From positions 1,522,199 to 1,586,198 of the forward strand of contig NW_018405506.1 in the NCBI RefSeq assembly GCF_002113885.1: a DNA stretch of 64,000 nucleotides. Direction: 5' to 3'. Positions within the stretch are counted from its first letter, which is position 1. Every line of letters starts with the position of its first letter. The stretch is from Mizuhopecten yessoensis. Taxonomy: Eukaryota. Under the pieces are notes generated by a model. That model was not told the origin of the DNA and searched no databases. It saw only the letters and a program-made list of their open reading frames with translations. A program made the position numbers and the translations under genes. This document shows positions 19,101-64,000 of this stretch, piece after piece.

Positions 19101-22100
19101 TAGCATTACAATCACTGTTTCTTTCTCTGTTCATCTTTAACTGTTTACATGCAATCCATGTTTTGTTGTTTCGGAGCGCCAGTCATGTGTAACTGTTGGC
19201 TTTACTCAAATATCCATCTGTTGGATAAGTAGTGGTCTTATGGGTAACCGTTAGATAAATGAATAGGCATCATCTTATCCAATGCCAAACTGTTGAATAA
19301 AGCAAATGAAGGTACCCAATGTTTCGCTAGCTGACAAATAAAATTTGTATTTAATCTTTATATTTGCTTATATTGTACTATCTGTCAAGCTCACGGTCAG
19401 AATACCCACTCTGTAAATTTGTAAAGTGCTGATTTTATGTGTTGAAGAGCGATGTCGATATATTGGTGAATTTGATTGATTGAAATAAACATTTAGTATT
19501 AAGCATGGCGCCAAACACATACTAAGCTACCTCAGTCTAAACTCCGAATAGATCTTCTTTATTCCTTTCTACGTGAATTTTCTGTAGGCTTCCCTGAAAT
19601 GGTATCCGTGGTTCTACCTATAATCAATGCCAACCTAACCACAGCATTACATTTCAAATGTTGCTTTAGAATTAGAATGACATATCCGCAGTCTAAACAA
19701 CATTAGTTTGACGGTAAACGGTACCAAAAGGGTTCTGGCAAATTTTCAAAATATCAACAAAACCAACTCTTGAAACATACCACTTAATGTATTTGGGTTC
19801 TTACTTAATGGATCGCTATTGTAAGTGGGGATTGTTTTTCTTGTCCTCTCACATATTGCACTGTACTAAGTACGGTATTGGATACTGTTAATGTAGTAAA
19901 CATGTTATTGTAGACTTACACGATTATTATGTTTTGATTATACAATGTACTACATTACAATTTTTTGGGTAAATATACCAATGCCTGGAAATGGAGTTTT
20001 ATGATTTGGTATTGACAAAAAATACCCCTCTGTTTCAGAATCTTAAAATGAAATCTTCTAAACACCTGTTTCAGACTACGAAGAGACAGGGTTTCTGGCG
20101 CTGCAGTATGCCATTGACAAAGCCATAATAGACAAAAAGGCTCCTTCGAACACCCTGGGCACCACATACAACATACAGCTCAAGAAAATGGCCTACCCGA
20201 CGTTCGTGGAGGACGGCCTGACAGCCACCCTGTCTTCAATTATGCCCCTGTTCCTCATGTTGTCCTTTATCGTTACTGTATTCACGGCCACTAAAAACAT
20301 CGTCCAGGAAAAGGAGACCAAAATCAAGGTAAACAAAGCAACTGACTCGTTCACACTTTTTTTGGAAATTAGCCAGACAGCATATATTATGTCAAATCTT
20401 CATTTTCTACAGGCAAACTGGTAATATACCCTTTCATTGTATTCCGTCTTTGCGTATTGCAGAGTTATCTTCTCTTGGGAACAGGTATTGATTGTTACGT
20501 CATTGATTTGTGCGAGAAAATTACGTCGTTTTCTCAAAAATTGATGACGTTACTCTCACAAACAAGTGACGTAACAATCAATACCTGCTCCCAAGAGAAG
20601 ATAACTCTGCAATACGCAAAGACGGAATTGTCAATCTTACACAAGCTTCGTAATAGCTGTCACACAATTCTTCTGGTTTTTTTATAGAGCCCTGTCATGT
20701 ACAGCACTGTTATTAGATGCAATTACAATGCAATGGCCTCTATACAACCGTTTTTTTGTAAACAAGAGTATGCATGACGTTGATGCAATCAGAGATATAT
20801 GGTTTTATCACATAAGGTACTGTGTTATCCAGTGAATATATTCATGTCATTATTTTTGGCGTATTAACCCATGTAATATGACCTTTCAGCCCTGTGATTG
20901 GTTGTAAGTTTCGATTGGTTTAATTGTGACTCCATGCATCGGACAAGTACATGACGTCACAGACTTACTCACTGGAGTCAAAATGGCGGCTTTTTACATT
21001 TCAAAGTTGCATGGAAATTGTCGTTTTACACGAATAAATGCCACAAATCTTGATTATGTTATAAAAAGGATCTTAATCTCGTTTTCAATTTATGTGTAAT
21101 TTATGAAACTCGTAACGAATTTTTCAAAATTTATCTCTTTGTGTACATGTGTGAGTTCATTTACAACGTGTCTCCTTGTTGATTGTTTATAGGAGTCGAT
21201 GAAGTTGGTGGGGTAGAGCCCGAATATGTACTTGATTTCAAAATATTGTGTTGGTTTGTTTACAGGAGTCGATGAAGCTGATGGGGATGAGCCCCACCAT
21301 GTACTGGCTGTCTTGGTTCACCAAACTGTTTATCTACCTGTTTGTCATCTGCTTCCTGTTTGCACTGCTGTTCGGGGTCAAGGCCGGCGATAATGGCAGT
21401 GTTCTGCAGGCTTCCCAACCTTCCCTCATCTTTGTATTTCTTCTTCTCTTCGGCATCTCAATCATCGCCTTCTGCTTCATGATGGCGACTATATTCAAGA
21501 GAGGTAATATTCATTTGAGCGAACTCGCACTTTGCCATAAATCTAATCAGTGACTATATTGCCATACGTTTCATCCTGTTAAATGAACATACCAATGAAG
21601 ATAGCATTCGAAGTTCTGCAAGTTGCCTTGACGCCTCTTTTGACTTCAGTATGCGTCATCGTGTAGGAGATCTTGGCAGAATATAGTGTACTGTATACTC
21701 CTTGCTTAATTGAATAATCATGAAAAATATCAGTATTCTGTGATACTTTTGAAATATACATAAGATTCAACAGGAAAACTATTAAATATCCGTAAGTGTT
21801 ATTATATACGAATTATGAAGACAAATCTTCTGTCGCTATGAATGAAATGATTTTGCATTTAAACCGAGAAGAAATACATGTTCGGTGTGATGATTGTGTC
21901 TCCTAGCCACGTCGGCGGCGTTCGCGGCGGGGATCCTCTACTTCCTGTTCTACATGCCACAGTTCTTTCTGGGTCGGTCCTATGACACGCTCGGCAAGGG
22001 GGAAAAGGTGGCCATCTCCCTGCTCAACCTCATGGCCATGTCGTTTGGGGTCACCACCATCACCCTGTACGAAGGCACAGGTTAGTTTTATTTTACACAT

Positions 22101-38822: not shown

Positions 38823-41500
38823 TGTCACGTAAGCTCAGCTTGTCCGTTTCGCCCGACTGGGTTAAAAGTATATACGGAATAAGTAAGAGAGTTGCAGAAA
38901 GTTCAGACTGGGAGAGAGAGAGGATTTTCCCGCCACTGAGATTACGAGAGCTGGATCATCTGTTGCCTGGGTGCTGCGTGTGCGCTATGCTGGATTTTGT
39001 GTGAATAGATTGCAACTTATATACATGTACTCGATGTTACCGTTGTTACCGCTCTATCACAACCTAGTTCGTAGGTTGTCTCAAAGCGGTTCACAATTTA
39101 TTATCCGTGGTTATAGGGCCTTTCCAACCAGCCAATACCTTTCTCAACTCCCTGGGGAGCAAACAGCCGGAGCTGCCATTTCGGCGCTAACAGCTAGCAT
39201 TCAAACAATTCTAGCACTGCCCAACCACGTACTCATTTACAACTGAGTAGACTGGAACAAGCAGAGTAAAGTATCTTGCTCAAAGATACAACAAAGTGCC
39301 GTGACGTGAATCGAACCAGCAAACCTTGTCACGAGCCGGCGTTCTACCACTAGACTACCGTGCCTAGGGCCCCTAGAAAATAAACCCAGTAGATTACTAA
39401 CAATAAGCCTGCAGGATCTCATCGTTAGAAATACAAAGGATAGTCAATAGAAACAGCATCAAGTTATGGTTTGGCTTTTTAAACTTTTTTACTTACATGC
39501 ATAGACCCTTCGGTCACGAGCCCGGTGTCCTACCACTAGACTACCGTGCCTCCTCTAATAAAGTGAAAAACTCAGAGACTGTGTTGATTTGTGTGCTGCT
39601 CGACTGTCCATTCTATCTTTAAAATTATTTGGGTATTATTGATTGTTTTCGACACCACGCGGACGATTACAAAGGGCTTCCGACGACGGCGACGAGCTGT
39701 ACGCGACAATTGGTGGTAGCGATGTGATCAAATTGGGGTACTAACTACTCGTATTTAAGGCATATGAAACAATACTAAAACTTTCACAACCAGGAGTCTT
39801 TGATGGATTCAGAATTTGTTAAATTCACGTAACACCAGCAGACCCTGGGAGCGGAAATATCTCGCGACCAAAACTCCCCTAAAAAGGAGCTGGCAAGATT
39901 TGGGTGAAGATGACGAACATTCGACGTGTTCATGTGCGTGTCCTTTCTAGTGGTCCTAATATTAGGACTATCTATTGTGCTGGTGTATTGGAGCTTCACT
40001 TATATTGTACAGGCACCATACAGACATTCTATGCGAAGAGGACACATTGGTTAATTATGTGTGTGCTTGTGCTTATTAGCCCTAATTTCCTTACAAATGA
40101 GGAGATTGACGATTAACATCATATAAACGGCGATAACGATCATCAAGGCCAGTAATCGTCTATAGAGGAATGGCTGGACATTCTGTTGTGCCGTATGCTG
40201 ACGAAGATGGGGCGGGGAACGCTCTGCGGTCGCGATCGGAACCTTTGTACACTAGTAGTACACGAAACCAGAGTGTCCGGTAAGGAGAACTTTTACAGGC
40301 CAGAATTCCGATACCTGGTCCGAATTTTTAGAATACTGTGAAAATATGGCTGTACTGCACAACTAGACTCTGATGAGGAAAAGACGAATGCTATGTTATG
40401 CCCATGTTCTTCCCTGGTTTATAAGAAGAAGTACTTGTTTGGCAGAAAAACTTGAGGAAAGATTCAGACACGCCGCCTTGAAGGAATATGTGACAGAAGA
40501 AAAGTGACGACGACGGCAAAATGAAGAATCGCTCAGGGAATTTGGTCAAGCCATAGAAGATTTCTACCGGTGGGATTATCAGGACAAACCTGGATAAGCG
40601 GAGGAACATCTATTACAGGCACTTTGAGATAAACGTAGTGAATCAGAGGAACATCGCTTCGCGGTGAAGAGGACCAAACCATATAATATGAATGAAGCGA
40701 TTACTAATGTGATGCAGGAGGAATGTCTCCGTGTTAGAGAGAGGAAATTAAGGAAGGAAGCGAAACCAGGCGTAAGGCCTGTTTTGGGAGTTGACTCATA
40801 AGGAAACAGACGGAATATGGACAATATACGCCGAGGAGATATCCCGGATATAAAAGAAATGGACGACGGAAGACTTTCGGTAGGAGGGATTAAAACGACA
40901 GTCGACCGGACCGGAGGGACTTGGTCGGGTCGAATCAAAGAAGAAACCCATGAAATATGATGATCACGGTAAAATGATTAAGTAGGAAACGAAGGATCGG
41001 GTAAAAACAAACGGTATCGGGGAAATATACAGACCCCCTTGAGGGAAACTGGAAATAAATCCAGGTACAAAACGTACGCCAGAGCGTTCCAGAGCCCACA
41101 CACTAATCTATAAAACAAACCTCTTGGACTTTATCGCCACTCGAAAGTCGAAACCAAGGGGCACTCGGCGTGATGCAATTGGCGAGAGTTCACATTCGGA
41201 CATCGAGGATTTTACGTCACGGAGATTACTAGAGCTGGATCGTCTGTTGCCTGAGTAATGCGTGTGCGCTATGCTGGATTATGTGTGAATATATTGTAAC
41301 TTGTATACATGCACTCGATGTTACCGTTCTTATATAATAAAGTTAAACACTGAGACTGTGTTGATTTGTGTATTGCTTGATTGCCCATATATTCTATCTT
41401 TAAAATTACTTGGGTATTGTTGAGGTTGTCCAACTCTACGTGGACGCTTACAGAGGACTTACGGCGACGGCGACGAGCTGTGTACGGGTGGTACGCGACT
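38823..41500 (+). mobile_element. Degenerate, internally deleted Gypsy LTR retrotransposon (5' LTR 38823-39708, PBS 39711, gag remnant ~40190-40750, partial 3' LTR ~41185-41500)
   Basis: TGTCACGT...ACGCGACA termini; PBS TGGTGGTAGCG; gag-like WSEFLEYCENMAVLHN and FAVKRTKP...VMQEECLR; ~300-bp direct repeat. Confidence 0.7.
39049..39550 (-). mobile_element. tRNA-derived SINE inserted in the LTR
   Basis: Minus-strand head ggcacggTAGTCTAGTGG...GGTTCGATTC (A/B boxes); highly similar copy at ~63775-64000; head partly duplicated at 39513-39550. Confidence 0.8.
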
Positions 41501-45300: not shown

Positions 45301-47639
45301 AACGTATGCGATGACAACCGAATTTTAGCAATTTGTTTTATATTTTGTCATCCAATAGGTTTAATTAAATACTGTTTAAGACAAAAAATACCACATATCC
45401 ATTTATAAAGAGAACACTTAGCAGATGAATTAATTAAATCTAGACACTCCTGTTGAAAAATGTCATGCATTCTACATTTAATGATATTCAGAATTTGACC
45501 TTCATTTCCTTCTGTCAGCCATAAATATCACAAACCTAACCTATATAATTCATTTCTTATGTTATTTGTCCAGTCGCTGCCCTTTTCAATCATCTCATCG
45601 TAACAAGCCTTTAAAATGCAATTGTCCGAAATTCTAAGTTTGAGCCAATATTTGAAAATTCTAAATTTCCTTATCATTTGTAAAGGTAGTCTCCCTAATT
45701 CTTGATAAATCATTACATTAGGTGTGCATTTCTTAATTCCCAAAATTCGTTTACAAAAATTCAAATTCACTTTCTCAATATCTGGAGCTTTGTGAAAGCC
45801 CCACATTTTAGCTCCATAGCTTAGGACACTGCACACAAAAGTATCAAAAACGCTAAGTTGGGTTTCAATATTGAAATATTTCCTTTTAAAAACATTGGAT
45901 ACAGCATATAGTGCTTTCCTACCTTGTTCCGCTAATTTCTCTTGTGTAATACTAAATTTACCATTGAATTTCATTAGAATTCCAAGGTAGCTAAAACTAT
46001 CAACATTTTCTAAAACATTACCACCATAAAACCATTTTTCTTTCTCCTTCAACTTACCACCATTCCTAAAAATTTTAACTAGTTTTTTCAACATTAACAG
46101 TTAGATTCCATTTCTTAGTGTATTGTAATAGTGTGTCTAACATTTTTTGCAATCCCTCTGCCGATTCAGCTGACAAAACCATATCATCTGCGTACATTAG
46201 AAGAAATAAGTTAATAGTTTGGAGTTCTATAGAAGGACAGTTATCAGTTAAAAATGCATCTCACAATCATTCACATAAAGAGAAAATAAAATCGGTGACA
46301 ATATTTCGCCTTGGAACAAACCATTTCTGCATTCGAAGAAATTAGACACTGAATTGTTGAATTTAACACAACATTTTACATCATTATATAAAGAACGTAT
46401 CATATTTAACAATTTACCTTCTACTCCTTCCTTAATTAGTTTAAACCACAAATTCTGTCTGTTAACAAAATCGAAAGCTTTCTTATAAACTATGAAACAA
46501 CAATAAAGCTTCTTATTCTTCTTTAAAGTTCTATTAATTAACGATTGCAAGACAAACACAGCATCTATGGTTTACATATGTTTTCTGAAGCCAAATTGAG
46601 CGTCACTTATTTTAGAATAAGCGGTATCAAATTCCATAAGTCGATTATTTAAGGTTGCTGTAAATATTTTGACTAAAAACTAACTAGAGTAATTCCTCTA
46701 TACTTATTTGTGTCATTCTTATCCCCCTTTTTAAATAGTGGAATAATATTACCTATTGACCATATGGAAGGATAGTTACCAGATTTGAAAATTTTATTAA
46801 ATAATTTGACAAGACAAGGTAATAAAACCTCTTTACCTTTGATAAAAAAAAACTCATTGATTAACAAATCATGGCCACATGTTTTATCTGTGCTTAAGTT
46901 ATTGATTACTTTATTAACTTCTTCTTTAGAAATGTCAATGTCCAGTTAATAAAACATAGCTTGAGGTATATCATTAGTGGCATCATAATTTCTCAAAACC
47001 TCGGTTACAGCCTCATTTTCACGAGGTTTCTTGGATGACAAATTACTAAAATGTAGATAAAAATCATGTTCATCAAGTGAAGACTTCACATTATTCTTTC
47101 TGCTATTAAAATATCTATAAAAATGTTTTGGATTATATTTTCTCATGAAGTTCAACATGTCACCTTGATGTGTTTTGTACTGCCTCTTCAACTTAAGTTC
47201 CATTTTCTTATAACTGCGTTTTTTCAAAACAAGTGCATCATGATTTTCTTTGTTCTTACATGAATTGAATGTAAATAAAGCATTTTTATATTCCATATAG
47301 CGAAGTTTGCAAATTTCATTGAACCAAGGTTTATCTTCTTTGCCTTTTTCCTTATAATCGCCGTACATAACAACACTAAGAGGTAATAATAGTTATTTCA
47401 GAAGATCAGTATTTTTTTAACACTTTAATTGATACCAATTTGGCTCACATCATTAATTACTGTCACAACAATAAGATAACTCGTTTATAACAAGACCCGA
47501 CCAGTCGGGCAACTGGGCCAATCAACGATACACTGTAATATTGACACTACGTAAACAGCTTGTAAAAAAATCAATAAGGTGCTAATGATGACCTTGTGTA
47601 GTACAGGTAGGGACACATACATTTTTGTAAAAGGCTACT

Positions 47640-48945: not shown

Positions 48946-49677
48946 ACACAATAAAATCCAAGAGTTATGTAGCAACGGAACCGTTGACCCGAGCGACAGA
49001 CAATTAATACCTACTCCATTACAATAGCGTGAATTTGATAAGAGGCTGTCAATGTACCATTAGTTGTGTTGTTCCATTAGTTGTGTTGTAATGAACCCCA
49101 ATCGGTTAATGTCGGGCAAACATGGGCAAATGAAAACCCTATATAATAACGTGAGGTCAACATGTACATGTGTGGATCAGTCAGAGACGTATGTATTATA
49201 CGTCTCTGGTCAGCTACCTACATACTTAAGGTATGACCATGATAATGTAGAACATTGTAATGAAGATCGCTACACTTCTACCTCCTTTAACGCATTGAAC
49301 AATGCTCTACTGTTCAATATAAACAAGAAAGTATTGTCACGTATTTAGAATCACGTAAGTGTACCTCTCTCGTAAAACATTATGTGCAGAAGAGTGCATA
49401 ATGCAGAGTTCATTAGTACCACGTAATAACAAATTAAGTACATAACATCGTAATACACCAAAATAATCACTAACAAGATTAAATTGATCACTCCATGACT
49501 TACTATCCTCACGGAATTAGATCTTAGTCCGTGCTATCCTGAAGACGTTACCGTTTGACAATAACACCATGATAAATCATCATCCATACAAAAGATTAAT
49601 CTACAGCTAAAATAATAAAAGTCACAAATAAGATATCATAAATATCACAGTTAGCTAGAATATCGCGCCGTCCACCT

Positions 49678-49865
49678 ATTTCGTCTTTGCGTATTGCAGA
49701 GTTGTCTTCTCTTGTGAGCAGGTGTTGATTGTTACGTCATTGGTTTGTGTGAGAAAATGACGTCGTTTTCTCAAAAAATGATGACGTTACTCCCACAAAC
49801 CAATGACGTAACAATCAATCCCTGCTCTCAAGAGAAGATAACTCTGCAATACGCAAAGACGGAAT
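49678..49865. mobile_element. Palindromic MITE, copy 2
   Basis: Near-identical to 20441-20628. Confidence 0.85.
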
Positions 49866-50249
49866 ATAGGGATGTGAGCAGGGAGATCACTCGCATAGAG
49901 TACAGGATTCAAGGAAACGGATCTTGTATCCCTTTTAAAATGTGTCCGACTCGCGATCATGTCCGACTTACGATGAGTTTACCCTACCTATAATAATCTA
50001 AAGGAAAACATAGATTGTAAAACTTCACGTCATTGTATGGACACTTAATAAGTATCCGACAAAGAGCGTTATATAGTCGGCTTGATATATATAATATAAA
50101 TTGCAGACGAACTCTTGGCACTTCTATACATTTTATCATGGATATAACATATAGTACCCGTCCATGACTACTAATAGATAAAACAAACGCAAAGAAACGT
50201 CTGTACCATACACGTTATTTTTTAAAAATTCCATGGGCACTTAATTAGT

Positions 50250-52797: not shown

Positions 52798-53054
52798 ATG
52801 AAAAAGGTGATACTTTTCTTCACTGTCATGGTTTTGTTCTCATACAAAATCCAGGGTTTACATAGATATTGGAACGACAACACTGTGAACGGGAAGAAAT
52901 ATGGCGAGTTTTCCGATGAGGAGAGAGTGGAAATGTTGGAGGGAACAAAACGTATGTTTCATTTCGGATACGACAATTATATAAAGTATGCTTTCCCGGA
53001 CGATGAACTTAATCCAATTTACTGCACTGGACGGGGACATGACCATGCCGATCC
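52798..53054 (+). CDS. EDEM1: EDEM1 coding exon 1
   Basis: MKKVILFF...[12 protein letters not shown]; donor CC|gtacgt. Confidence 0.85.
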
Positions 53055-56000
53055 GTACGTATCACACTGGAACCGACAAAAACATTACTTATTATGAACA
53101 GAAGAATGGTGTTAAATATAGGCTTTTTCGATTTTTGGGATTTGCCAGCAAAATTAATATTGTTTAACATGTTACTTCGTTCATAAGATAATTTGCCATA
53201 AGTGTATTCAGTTTACTATATGCACCTAATTATAATCAATAGTCACAGTTTCTGTCTTAGATATTTAGATTGCGATCGTTCAAGCTACATTGTAATTTGT
53301 AGCTGCATTTTGTTAAGCCCATATCTATAGTATTTTTCAGCATATTCCATTTAATTTGGAAAAATAAAATGCATGGGTGGTGTAGTGGATAGTGCACTTG
53401 CCTTTCACAAAGGCGGCCAGGGTTCGATTCCCAGATCGGACGTGAACATGTATGGGGTTAGCTGCGATAACGTAGCTTTCTGACGATGAGACATTTTTTT
53501 ATATATTGCGGCAGAGCGGAGAGTAGGCAGGGAATGAATATTCGTTCTAGTATGGGGTCACCTGCCCGATGACGTGGGTTTTCTCCAGGTGTACTCCTGT
53601 TTCCTCCCACAATAAGACCCCTGCCTGCCAACATCCGGGCCAACAAGAGTGATTAATATAAGTTGAAATAACTTGTTTCATAAATGAAATTAATTAATTT
53701 GTTATTAAATAAGCAAAGTTTATTTTTTTTAAATGGTTACAAATTTTGTATTTATAGATATTTGTAATGATTGTCCAGGTACATGTTGAGGCAAGGTAAA
53801 GCCTGAGAACCCATGGTTTTGAAAGTAGCCCTGTCATATATGGTAATACAATGTACCACACAAGGAAATTATATGCCACTGGTTAGTAATTACTAAATTA
53901 GCCTACATCATGTCTGGATGGGATTTTGAACTGTATCAAATTGCAAAAAGATTTTTGCATAAAATTATAAACAATGTTGAAAGGTTAAGGATTTCCCATC
54001 AAATACAATACATTGTTATTATTAATAACATTTCATATATATGATAGTATACTGATGTTTGCATAATCAGACAAATGAGTGAAGTTTGTATGGTGTTCAA
54101 TTCAATAAACAATAAGATTTTCTAATAAATCAAGTTATATTTACTTTCTTCATGCTAACAATTAGTTATCACATTTCCCAGCATTGTTAATCTATAATTG
54201 CAGGTCTAATATCAACATCAATGATGCTCTGGGCGACTATATACTGACACTGGTGGATTCATTGGACACCCTAGCAGTATGTATCGCTAAAACTGTAACG
54301 GAACTGGACTGGGTCGAATGTCGGCGACGAGATAGCTCAATTGGTAGAGCGTCTGTCCAGAGTTCGAAGGGTCTCGGCCCTCTCGGGTTCGAACCCTGGT
54401 CTGACCGTGCATTTTTCCTCTCCTGTTACAGTGGTGTCTGTGACCAACCCTTGTTTCAAGCATTTGGTGTATGCTTGACAAGGGGAAACCCGGACCTGGC
54501 TTGTAAATAGTTGTGTCTTCGGGGGCAACAACTTAGAAAAAGGAGGGAGGAATGTAGCAGAACTGGACTGGGTCGATCGTAGGCAACAGGATATAGCTCA
54601 ATTGGTAGAGCGTCCGTCTGGAGTTCCGAGAGTCCTGGGTTCGAACCCTGGTCTGGCCGTGCATTTTTCCTCTCCTGTTACAATGCTATACCTTAAAATG
54701 TTTTACACTAGCTATTTGTAACACTCCACATTTACACAGACTGATGTATATTTAACATACATGTCAAACTGGACATTTTCATATAATCGTGTTGATCTGT
54801 ACAAACCGGTATTCTAAACAATTGGTAGCCAGTTGCATTTGAAAGTTGGCGATTAGTGGCTGTTAGTTGGCAACTTATACCAGCAAACAGCTTCTGTAAT
54901 GAGAACACTGATATATATGTAGACTGGCTAAATGTTACACATTCTTTGTTTGATGTTTGTCAGTTTTATTGTTTTGTGTTTGACAGATAATGGGTAACAG
55001 TTCAGAATTCAAGAGAGCAGTTAGTCTGGTGGTAGAGAATCTCTCATTTGAGAAAGCCAACACAATCCAAGTCTTCGAGGCAACCATAAGGTTAGTATCT
55101 TCATTTTACACCAATTGTATATTTCAAAAAAATATTTGAATTCATTTGTTTATCAAAGACAAATGAAAACAAAACTTAGTAAATGTTACCACTTTAAAAA
55201 GAAGTTTATTTATTAAATGAAATAAGCTACGAAATGTAAAAATATCTTAATTCATAAAAGGAATGAAATTATAATCTTGATATATATTGATTAAATCATG
55301 GATGTTATACATGTATCTGTTTACCAGTCTTTTATGAAATTACTGTAAACATGAAAGTTTGTTTGTGTTTATTTATTTGTACAAATATTCAATAATCTGA
55401 CTTACAGTAACTTTTGCTGTTTCAATATATCTGTGAAAGCTCTCAGTGGCAATACAAAACAAGAGATAGATAATCCTAAGTTTGAATGGGAATGAGTCAT
55501 TTTGGTGAAATTTACATTGAAATGAAATCATAGGGGATGTTTATTTCAAAATTAAAGAGAATATAGGAAAGATTATTCCTGCTGCTTATGGATATTTTAA
55601 TCATAAATGCATTTACTTGACGTAAAATCTCATCTCGGTTTTTGTGTTTTTTGTTAACATTTCATCATTATTGCCCTATACCGTGTTAGCCATACTTCTT
55701 TACCAAATAGATAATTACTGTGGAGATGTGTTATTGTATGCAGGGTCCTTGGTTCTTTGTTGTCCGCCCACCTCATCATCACCGACCCTAATCAACCTTT
55801 TGGAGACATGGTCCCTCCTCAATATGACAACGAGCTTCTTTCATTGGCCAACGACCTTGCCACAAGACTGCTTCCAGCTTTTGAAAACACAGCCACAGGA
55901 ATTCCATTTCCCAGGGTCAGTCCACTCTCGGGGTTATTCTCATTATAGCATTTTGTCTTCATTTTGTTCCTAAATTTATAATATAAATTTATTACTTTAC

Positions 56001-63749: not shown

Positions 63750-64000
63750 TAATAATAATAATTTGAGTTTCTTATATATACCGCTTTATCACAACCTAGT
63801 TCGTAGGTCGTCTCAAAGCGGTTCACAAATTATTATCCGTGGTTATAGGGCCTTTGCAACCAGCCAATATATTTCTCAACTCCCTGGGGGAGAATACAGC
63901 CAGTGCTGCCATTTCGGCGCTCATAGCTAGCATTCAACAATTCTAGCTCTGCCCAACCACATACTCATTTACAGCTGAGTAGACTGGAAGAAGCGGAGTA
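63750..64000 (-). mobile_element. SINE 3' part, same family as 39049-39550
   Basis: ccgct.tatcacaacctagttcgtagg...actcatttaca.ctgagtagactgg; (aat)n tail. Confidence 0.8.

Follow-up and report, generated by a model that had tools for sequence, protein, structure and literature searches.

The window, a stretch of 64,000 nucleotides from the scallop Mizuhopecten yessoensis, harbors a GH47/EDEM-type gene on its plus strand, and a short LTR retroelement lies within one of the introns of this gene. In an RNA contig, an ATG-bearing exon at 52798 is spliced to the exon at 54204-54276, which is therefore the second coding exon. It is followed by an intron of 710 nt with GT..AG borders (54277-54986) and by the third coding exon (54987-55091), which matches the Pfam family Glyco_hydro_47 (E 3.6e-06). 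The gene is a putative EDEM1; what the analysis itself shows is a GH47 gene, and a PDB search gave no resolution of its GH47 subfamily. RNA reads place the donor directly after 54276, so that the element begins 17 bp past the exon end, in the same orientation as the gene. The preliminary description, made from the letters of the DNA, had placed the insertion 17 bp past the donor of exon 2, and both the distance and the exon number hold.

Splicing was followed in four RNA or presumed-RNA runs (two raw, two contig) of the 21 listed. The intron is excised normally and exactly, in 8 and 3 reads of the raw runs and in one contig from each contig run, and no effect of the element on splicing is seen in these four runs. 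Element reads in both directions, mostly differing from the window copy, are present in two unstranded RNA-seq runs, where they show no clustered starts or ends on the element.

The element (54294-54682, plus strand) is 389 bp in length and is built in the order LTR, PBS, 122-bp interior, PPT and LTR. The 5' LTR (54294-54430, 137 bp) and the 3' LTR (54553-54682, 130 bp) have TGT...ACA termini and are identical at 114 of 128 aligned positions, with a further 11 gap columns; the divergence is 11% (distance 0.109), and the 5' LTR has additional bases right before its B box. In each LTR, an A box and a B box are followed by a run of five T residues (T5); the three lie at 54333-54344, 54386-54395 and 54412-54416 in the 5' LTR and at 54594-54605, 54638-54647 and 54664-54668 in the 3' LTR. 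The sense strand of the window copy has no T4+ run besides these two, of which the first is a predicted leaky Pol III terminator and the second the predicted end of a full-length RNA. The PBS (54432-54446) is of a bulged tRNA-His type, and the PPT (54535-54552) comprises 18 purines. The two TG...CA repeats, the PBS, the interior of about 120 bp and the PPT that had been proposed earlier, as well as the boxes and T5 of each repeat, are thus all present.

The LTR units had also been described as tRNA-derived, and this agrees with the Rfam tRNA model, which scores 32.2 bits in the 3' LTR, above the gathering score of 29, and 21.9 bits (E 0.052) in the 5' LTR. In a scan of Rfam to E 1, tRNA was the sole family matched, with no 5S. 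The units are not functional tRNA genes: acceptor and anticodon pairs are broken, the stems of the 3' LTR unit (54587-54656) are decayed, ARAGORN makes no tRNA call in the whole window, and the units fold no better than shuffles (z 0.67 and -0.86). The interior folds as two predicted hairpins, one at 54448-54484 and one upstream of the PPT at 54510-54532, with a whole-interior z of -1.76 in the window copy. The second hairpin is common to three families of the genome and includes one compensatory pair, a C-G to G-C exchange in the family of Helenus-2_MiYe type that is introduced below.

The 4-mers on either side of the element, AAAC on the left (54290-54293) and ATGC on the right (54683-54686), match at two of four positions and represent a decayed TSD. 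No further copy of the element was found inside the window. Other repeats in the window include two minus-strand ORFs of 188 and 140 aa at 45528-47368, which by eye resemble pieces of a non-LTR retrotransposon, a dispersed pair of near-palindromes of about 190 bp that are MITE-like (20440-20628 and 49677-49866), a second dispersed repeat pair (39047-39268 and 63779-64000), and many minisatellite arrays.

Copies in the scallop genome

A query of the genome with the whole element gave 3711 first-look candidates. Forty were scored, giving 47 matches of 70-87% identity with the self match excluded, and 30 loci were fetched, a sample biased to complete copies. All 30 loci, which stand for 29 distinct places including that of the window, have the LTR-interior-LTR order, some of them in tandem. 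A query with the LTR only (3122 candidates) added a number of solo LTRs, as well as elements of a sister family whose PBS is of tRNA-Lys type. The exact 24-nt junction between LTR and PBS of the His type occurs 93 times in the genome, a count that includes 16 inside one minisatellite array, compared with 0 for the reversed control, and the element is therefore not a product of chance. The Lys type of junction occurs 34 times, again with a control of 0. The loci L065-L080 (G000:C588, about 105000-110800) form a minisatellite whose units of about 54 bp consist of the 3' end of the family LTR and the PBS.

TSDs were scored in 46 multi-LTR records, from which these minisatellite loci had been excluded beforehand; six records were dropped, leaving 40 with complete edges. 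An exact 4-bp TSD is found in 23 of the 40, and 32 have one at no more than one mismatch. The shuffle control gave a mean of 0.47 and a maximum of 4 (2000 shuffles), and exact TSDs of 3, 5 or 6 bp were found in 0/40. Solo LTRs with 4-bp TSDs also occur (L035 and L037). The preliminary description had reported no clear TSD, which is correct for the window copy and incorrect for the family; the genome copies share the LTR-PBS-PPT layout together with TSDs. One solo LTR (L041 1501-1628, minus strand) lies between 5-bp rather than 4-bp repeats. The loci L002, L039 and L040, and likewise L053 and L054, have flanks in common across contigs and represent either duplication within a larger repeat or alleles.

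The LTRs of His-type elements are nearly as distant within an element (0.143) as between elements (0.157), as expected if the two LTRs were identical at insertion and decayed thereafter. The most decayed LTR columns are CpG (0.64 versus 0.85). The A and B boxes are conserved at 0.88 and 0.87, barely more than the other non-CpG LTR columns at 0.85, which is as expected under neutral decay and is no proof of promoter function. An A-box pattern is present in 74 of 117 LTRs and a B-box pattern in 78. ARAGORN calls a tRNA within the LTR at 17 of the 29 loci scanned (L002-L030), mostly Ser(AGA), and such calls on many copies will inflate tRNA annotations.

The window locus might instead be a recombinant of two insertions, or be partly gene-converted, either of which would explain its loss of the TSD and the differences between its LTRs. 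The flanks that match at two of four positions, the extra bases of the 5' LTR and the existence of chimeric elements in the genome are in keeping with such an origin. However, the LTR distance of 0.109 lies inside the family range of 0.071-0.228, an exact TSD is likewise absent in 15 of the 29 elements of His type, the two LTRs belong to one family type, and the host exons on either side are intact and spliced. We regard this origin as very improbable and prefer a single insertion that would have drifted since, its LTRs now being 11% apart. The window copy is most likely inert today.

Affiliation with Helenus elements

Helenus elements, also called TRIMp3, are TRIMs with tRNA-like LTRs, and 51 families are described in pteriomorph bivalves (Kojima 2024, PMC10886601). 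Animal Helenus elements have 4-bp TSDs and fall into several PBS classes, His and Lys among them; Gypsy elements are presumed to be their helpers, a link that relies on PBS similarity and TSD length only (PMC10886601). The window element, which is non-coding, shorter than 1000 bp and bounded by paired LTRs, is a Helenus-type TRIM, and belongs to a family of known kind with a so far unlisted combination of LTR and interior. This combination, the window LTR with a bulged-His interior, is absent among the pectinid, mytilid, pteriid and arcid families of PMC10886601, and among that part of its oyster families that was compared. The earlier suggestion of a possible new family is upheld to this extent. 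The family is set apart from the families of that study alone and may be named elsewhere; among the papers listed by a literature search, none was a further Helenus study by title.

Among the published sequences compared, Helenus-2_PeMa and Helenus-1_ArIr (PMC10886601) have LTRs of 129-130 bp, and a comparison by eye of the window element's 3' LTR with that of Helenus-2_PeMa gives about 110 matches in 127 aligned positions (about 87%). These elements and the window family have the same ends, A and B boxes, T run and 4-bp TSD. However, they have a tRNA-Lys PBS, an interior of 90-93 bp and T4, whereas the window family has a bulged tRNA-His PBS, an interior of 122 bp and T5. By eye, the interior of the Lys sister family of this genome matches that of these two elements, and a third family of the genome matches Helenus-2_MiYe. 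Within the portion of the PMC10886601 supplement compared by eye, the interior of the window family resembles that of Helenus-2C_CGi and other His-primed oyster Helenus elements, in which a His-type PBS is followed by GACCAACCC and the first hairpin, and which also share a motif resembling GAACCTGG, the hairpin TCTTCG...CGAAGA and a PPT ending in GGAGGAA. The oyster elements differ in the sequence of hairpin 1, their 101-bp interior, a more distant LTR and an unbulged PBS.

Three other kinds of small element bear comparison. Ajax, likewise a TRIM, has LTRs whose promoter stems from a small RNA, but this RNA is 5S, the TSD is 5 bp, the primer is tRNA-Leu and the element is confined to two nemerteans (PMC10886601). 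Cassandra, as far as the parts of its literature compared go, shares with the window element the TRIM structure, an LTR with a Pol III promoter and terminators, tandem LTR-interior arrays, and reported LTR read-through (PMC7215508, PMC10886601). It is nevertheless a 5S-derived element of land plants whose transcription has been validated, whereas Pol III transcription of the window element is predicted. The bivalve element biv-TRIM has interior hairpins as well, but no canonical PBS was identified and no tRNA-type LTR described in the part of PMC6934838 compared.

Both 5S-derived groups were rejected for the window element, Ajax from the absence of 5S in Rfam to E 1 and of any 5-bp TSD (0/40), and Cassandra from the absence of a 5S domain in the LTR of an animal element and of a 5-bp TSD. 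Membership in Ajax, which had been proposed as a possibility, does not stand, since Ajax is 5S-derived and nemertean and the tRNA-bearing TRIMs of bivalves are Helenus (PMC10886601). It had also been envisaged that the copies might turn out to be ordinary SINE heads or tandem tRNA pseudogenes. Each repeat does score as tRNA-like in Rfam, and many copies are called tRNA-Ser(AGA), as would suit such an origin, but the copies have TG...CA ends, a PBS, a PPT, fixed 4-bp TSDs and solo LTRs, and lack a tail. With paired LTRs in place of the head and tail of a tRNA-derived SINE, and with no 5S match, the chance that the element belongs to Ajax or consists of two SINE heads or a row of tRNA pseudogenes is vanishingly small, and assignment to Helenus is retained.

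Terminator runs and transcription

T5 or T6 is present in 31 of 41 5' LTRs and in 28 of 41 3' LTRs, and T5 is the commonest state in both alike, so the T5 in the 5' LTR is not special to the window copy. By eye, T4-T6 runs occur at the same place in many of the published families in the portion of the PMC10886601 supplement compared. As a family-wide feature, T5 did not stop the spread of the family, and the polymerase would have to read through it for an RNA of full length to be made. In the main text of PMC10886601, Cassandra is the only element for which terminators are brought up, and the words "hairpin" and "read-through" are absent. In the sections consulted, read-through is presumed for Cassandra arrays (PMC7215508), and human Pol III is said to read through T tracts commonly (bioRxiv 10.1101/2025.10.17.683076). 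If Pol III does make the RNA, we infer that the R region corresponds to the tRNA-like unit and that the first T5 is read through.

An element of the same class could also replicate from an RNA made by Pol II, either by read-through from host genes or from a Pol II promoter, the tRNA-like unit then being a passenger or a source only of short RNAs that end at T5. The frequency of T5 and T6 in the 5' LTRs, which would end many Pol III transcripts upstream of the PBS, argues for this, as do the element-like reads in ordinary RNA-seq and the fact that the Helenus Pol III promoter has not been validated (PMC10886601). However, the U3 of only about 30 bp leaves little space for a Pol II promoter, A and B boxes with a T4-T6 run recur by eye in many of the published bivalve, brachiopod and nemertean families compared, and read-through of T tracts by Pol III is common in human cells. 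Pol II is accordingly considered unlikely, and Pol III the preferred source. TFIIIC would bind the A and B boxes in the 5' LTR, with initiation by Pol III close to where the tRNA-like unit begins. Some transcripts, of about 85-90 nt, would end at the first T5, and the others would read through to the T5 of the 3' LTR (about 340 nt), with the tRNA-like unit acting as R, flanked by a U3 of about 30 nt and a U5 of 14 nt.

Primers, candidate helper and chimeric elements

The sister family has the same LTR as the window family, an 88-bp interior and a tRNA-Lys PBS. The distance between His and Lys LTRs (0.125) is close to the mean of the two within-family distances, and no LTR column is fixed between the families, two differing in frequency only (79 versus 62 LTRs); one LTR is thus coupled to two interiors and two primers. 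Folding of the interiors relative to shuffles is modest in both (mean z -0.90 for 32 His and -0.26 for nine Lys interiors). The Lys family includes a five-LTR tandem array of near-identical units, 0-1.6% apart (L046 853-1844, G000:C1665:54001-54992). Mixed His/Lys arrays were considered at L025 and L027, where all interiors proved to be decayed His type. A greater age of the His family is not established: within-element distances are 0.143 (n=29) for His and 0.069 (n=8) for Lys in top-hit samples that are biased, and 0.212 (7 of 14 usable, with one outlier of 0.455) versus 0.122 (19 of 27 usable) in junction-picked samples, with p 0.064.

Host tRNA-His genes were found. The family PBS is complementary to their 3' end across 14 bases, around one bulged T. 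Of the two primers named in the preliminary description, tRNA-His is therefore supported and tRNA-Leu rejected. The bulged PBS is exact in 25 of 38 His interiors, and the unbulged junction is present a single time in the genome, a count that is lowered by the CpG in its pattern. Single-base insertions are also seen in His-class PBSs in the portion of the PMC10886601 supplement compared. We infer that primer copying seldom corrected the PBS in the His family.

The candidate helper is a small, decayed family of Gypsy order, with RT followed by integrase and then p58/SH3, and with pol identities of 82-92%. Its LTRs start with TGTAGCGG and end with CTGTTACA, its PBS is of His type and its PPT is like that of the window family. 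Decayed copies lie at L227/L228 (G000:C3892), L225/L226 (C5426) and L230 (C4246), and one copy combines the His PBS, the RT, integrase and p58/SH3 domains and a 4-bp TSD, CAGT. TGTAGCGG and CTGTTACA are also the commonest ends of the window family's LTR (62/141 and 109/141). TGT...TTACA ends are common in bivalve LTRs, and TGTTACA also closes another element with a His PBS; the shared ends are therefore no more than suggestive. The search for an autonomous partner, as had been recommended, thus gave a Gypsy family that shares the His PBS and the 8-bp ends, but no interior similarity beyond PPT-like purine runs. On these circumstantial features, the His-primed Gypsy family is a likely candidate for the helper. 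In 17 regions fetched, other long elements with a His PBS gave sub-threshold capsid or integrase matches only, with the exception of L155. Five LTR elements with a perfect His PBS (L151, L156, L158, L159 and L167) have little coding remnant, and in four of them a second LTR lies 1.6-3.0 kb downstream.

We consider it highly probable that the window element is an old, decayed, non-coding Helenus-type LTR retrotransposon of the scallop, likely transcribed by Pol III from the tRNA-like unit of its LTR, with a tRNA-His-primed Gypsy element as the likely supplier of the proteins for its copying and integration. Its RNA would be packaged in Gypsy particles, possibly via the two interior hairpins, a role that is a guess. 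tRNA-His would prime at the bulged PBS and the PPT would prime the plus strand, after which Gypsy integrase would recognize the TGTAGCGG...CTGTTACA ends and generate the 4-bp TSD.

The perfect His motif occurs at 44 loci, 30 of which were examined. One of these, L099/L155, is chimeric: an LTR of Helenus-2_MiYe type is followed by 18 nt copied exactly from the end of tRNA-His, 14 filler bases and a broken pol, with RT and then integrase, that belongs to the candidate helper family (L155 662-2934, G000:C2051:781261-783533). The tRNA-His copy and the Gypsy element have AGGAT in common near the joint, and L155 is likely a template-switch product. At L174, L175 and L176 (near 1500) a 2_MiYe-type 5' LTR is joined to the PBS and interior of the window family, and two of the three also carry the window family's 3' LTR. 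At L107 (near 1500) a 2_MiYe-type LTR leads via a tRNA-His copy to an inverted piece of a window-family LTR at the B box.

In all five chimeras the junction is at the PBS, and it is the 5' LTR that is foreign. The jump of plus-strand strong-stop DNA is an established retroviral mechanism, and the joints may represent jumps of this kind. The five chimeras likely record co-packaging. Genomic recombination at the shared U5/PBS is an alternative that could produce similar joints. A TSD was seen for L174 alone, a possible one in A-rich sequence, and the tRNA-copy/Gypsy chimera, seen at one locus, has 14 filler bases and an LTR that belongs to a different Helenus family from that of the window. Among 10 matches, chimeras with His interiors number three and those with Lys interiors none, too few to establish a preference for His.

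It is quite conceivable, if somewhat short of probable, that several Helenus families travel in the particles of one His-primed Gypsy family whose 8-bp LTR ends are the same as theirs. Jumps of plus-strand DNA at the PBS would then give both elements with two unlike LTRs and the swap of His and Lys on one LTR, with the tRNA-like unit as the R region and T5 as a leaky terminator that is passed once per replicating RNA. Promoter function and primer switching in Helenus are left open by PMC10886601, and with a candidate helper, PBS-joined chimeras and two sister families, both become testable in one genome. A short variant of the 2_MiYe type, with a perfect 18-nt His PBS and hairpin 1 deleted, is also present in at least three places (L113, L171 and L173, near 1500).
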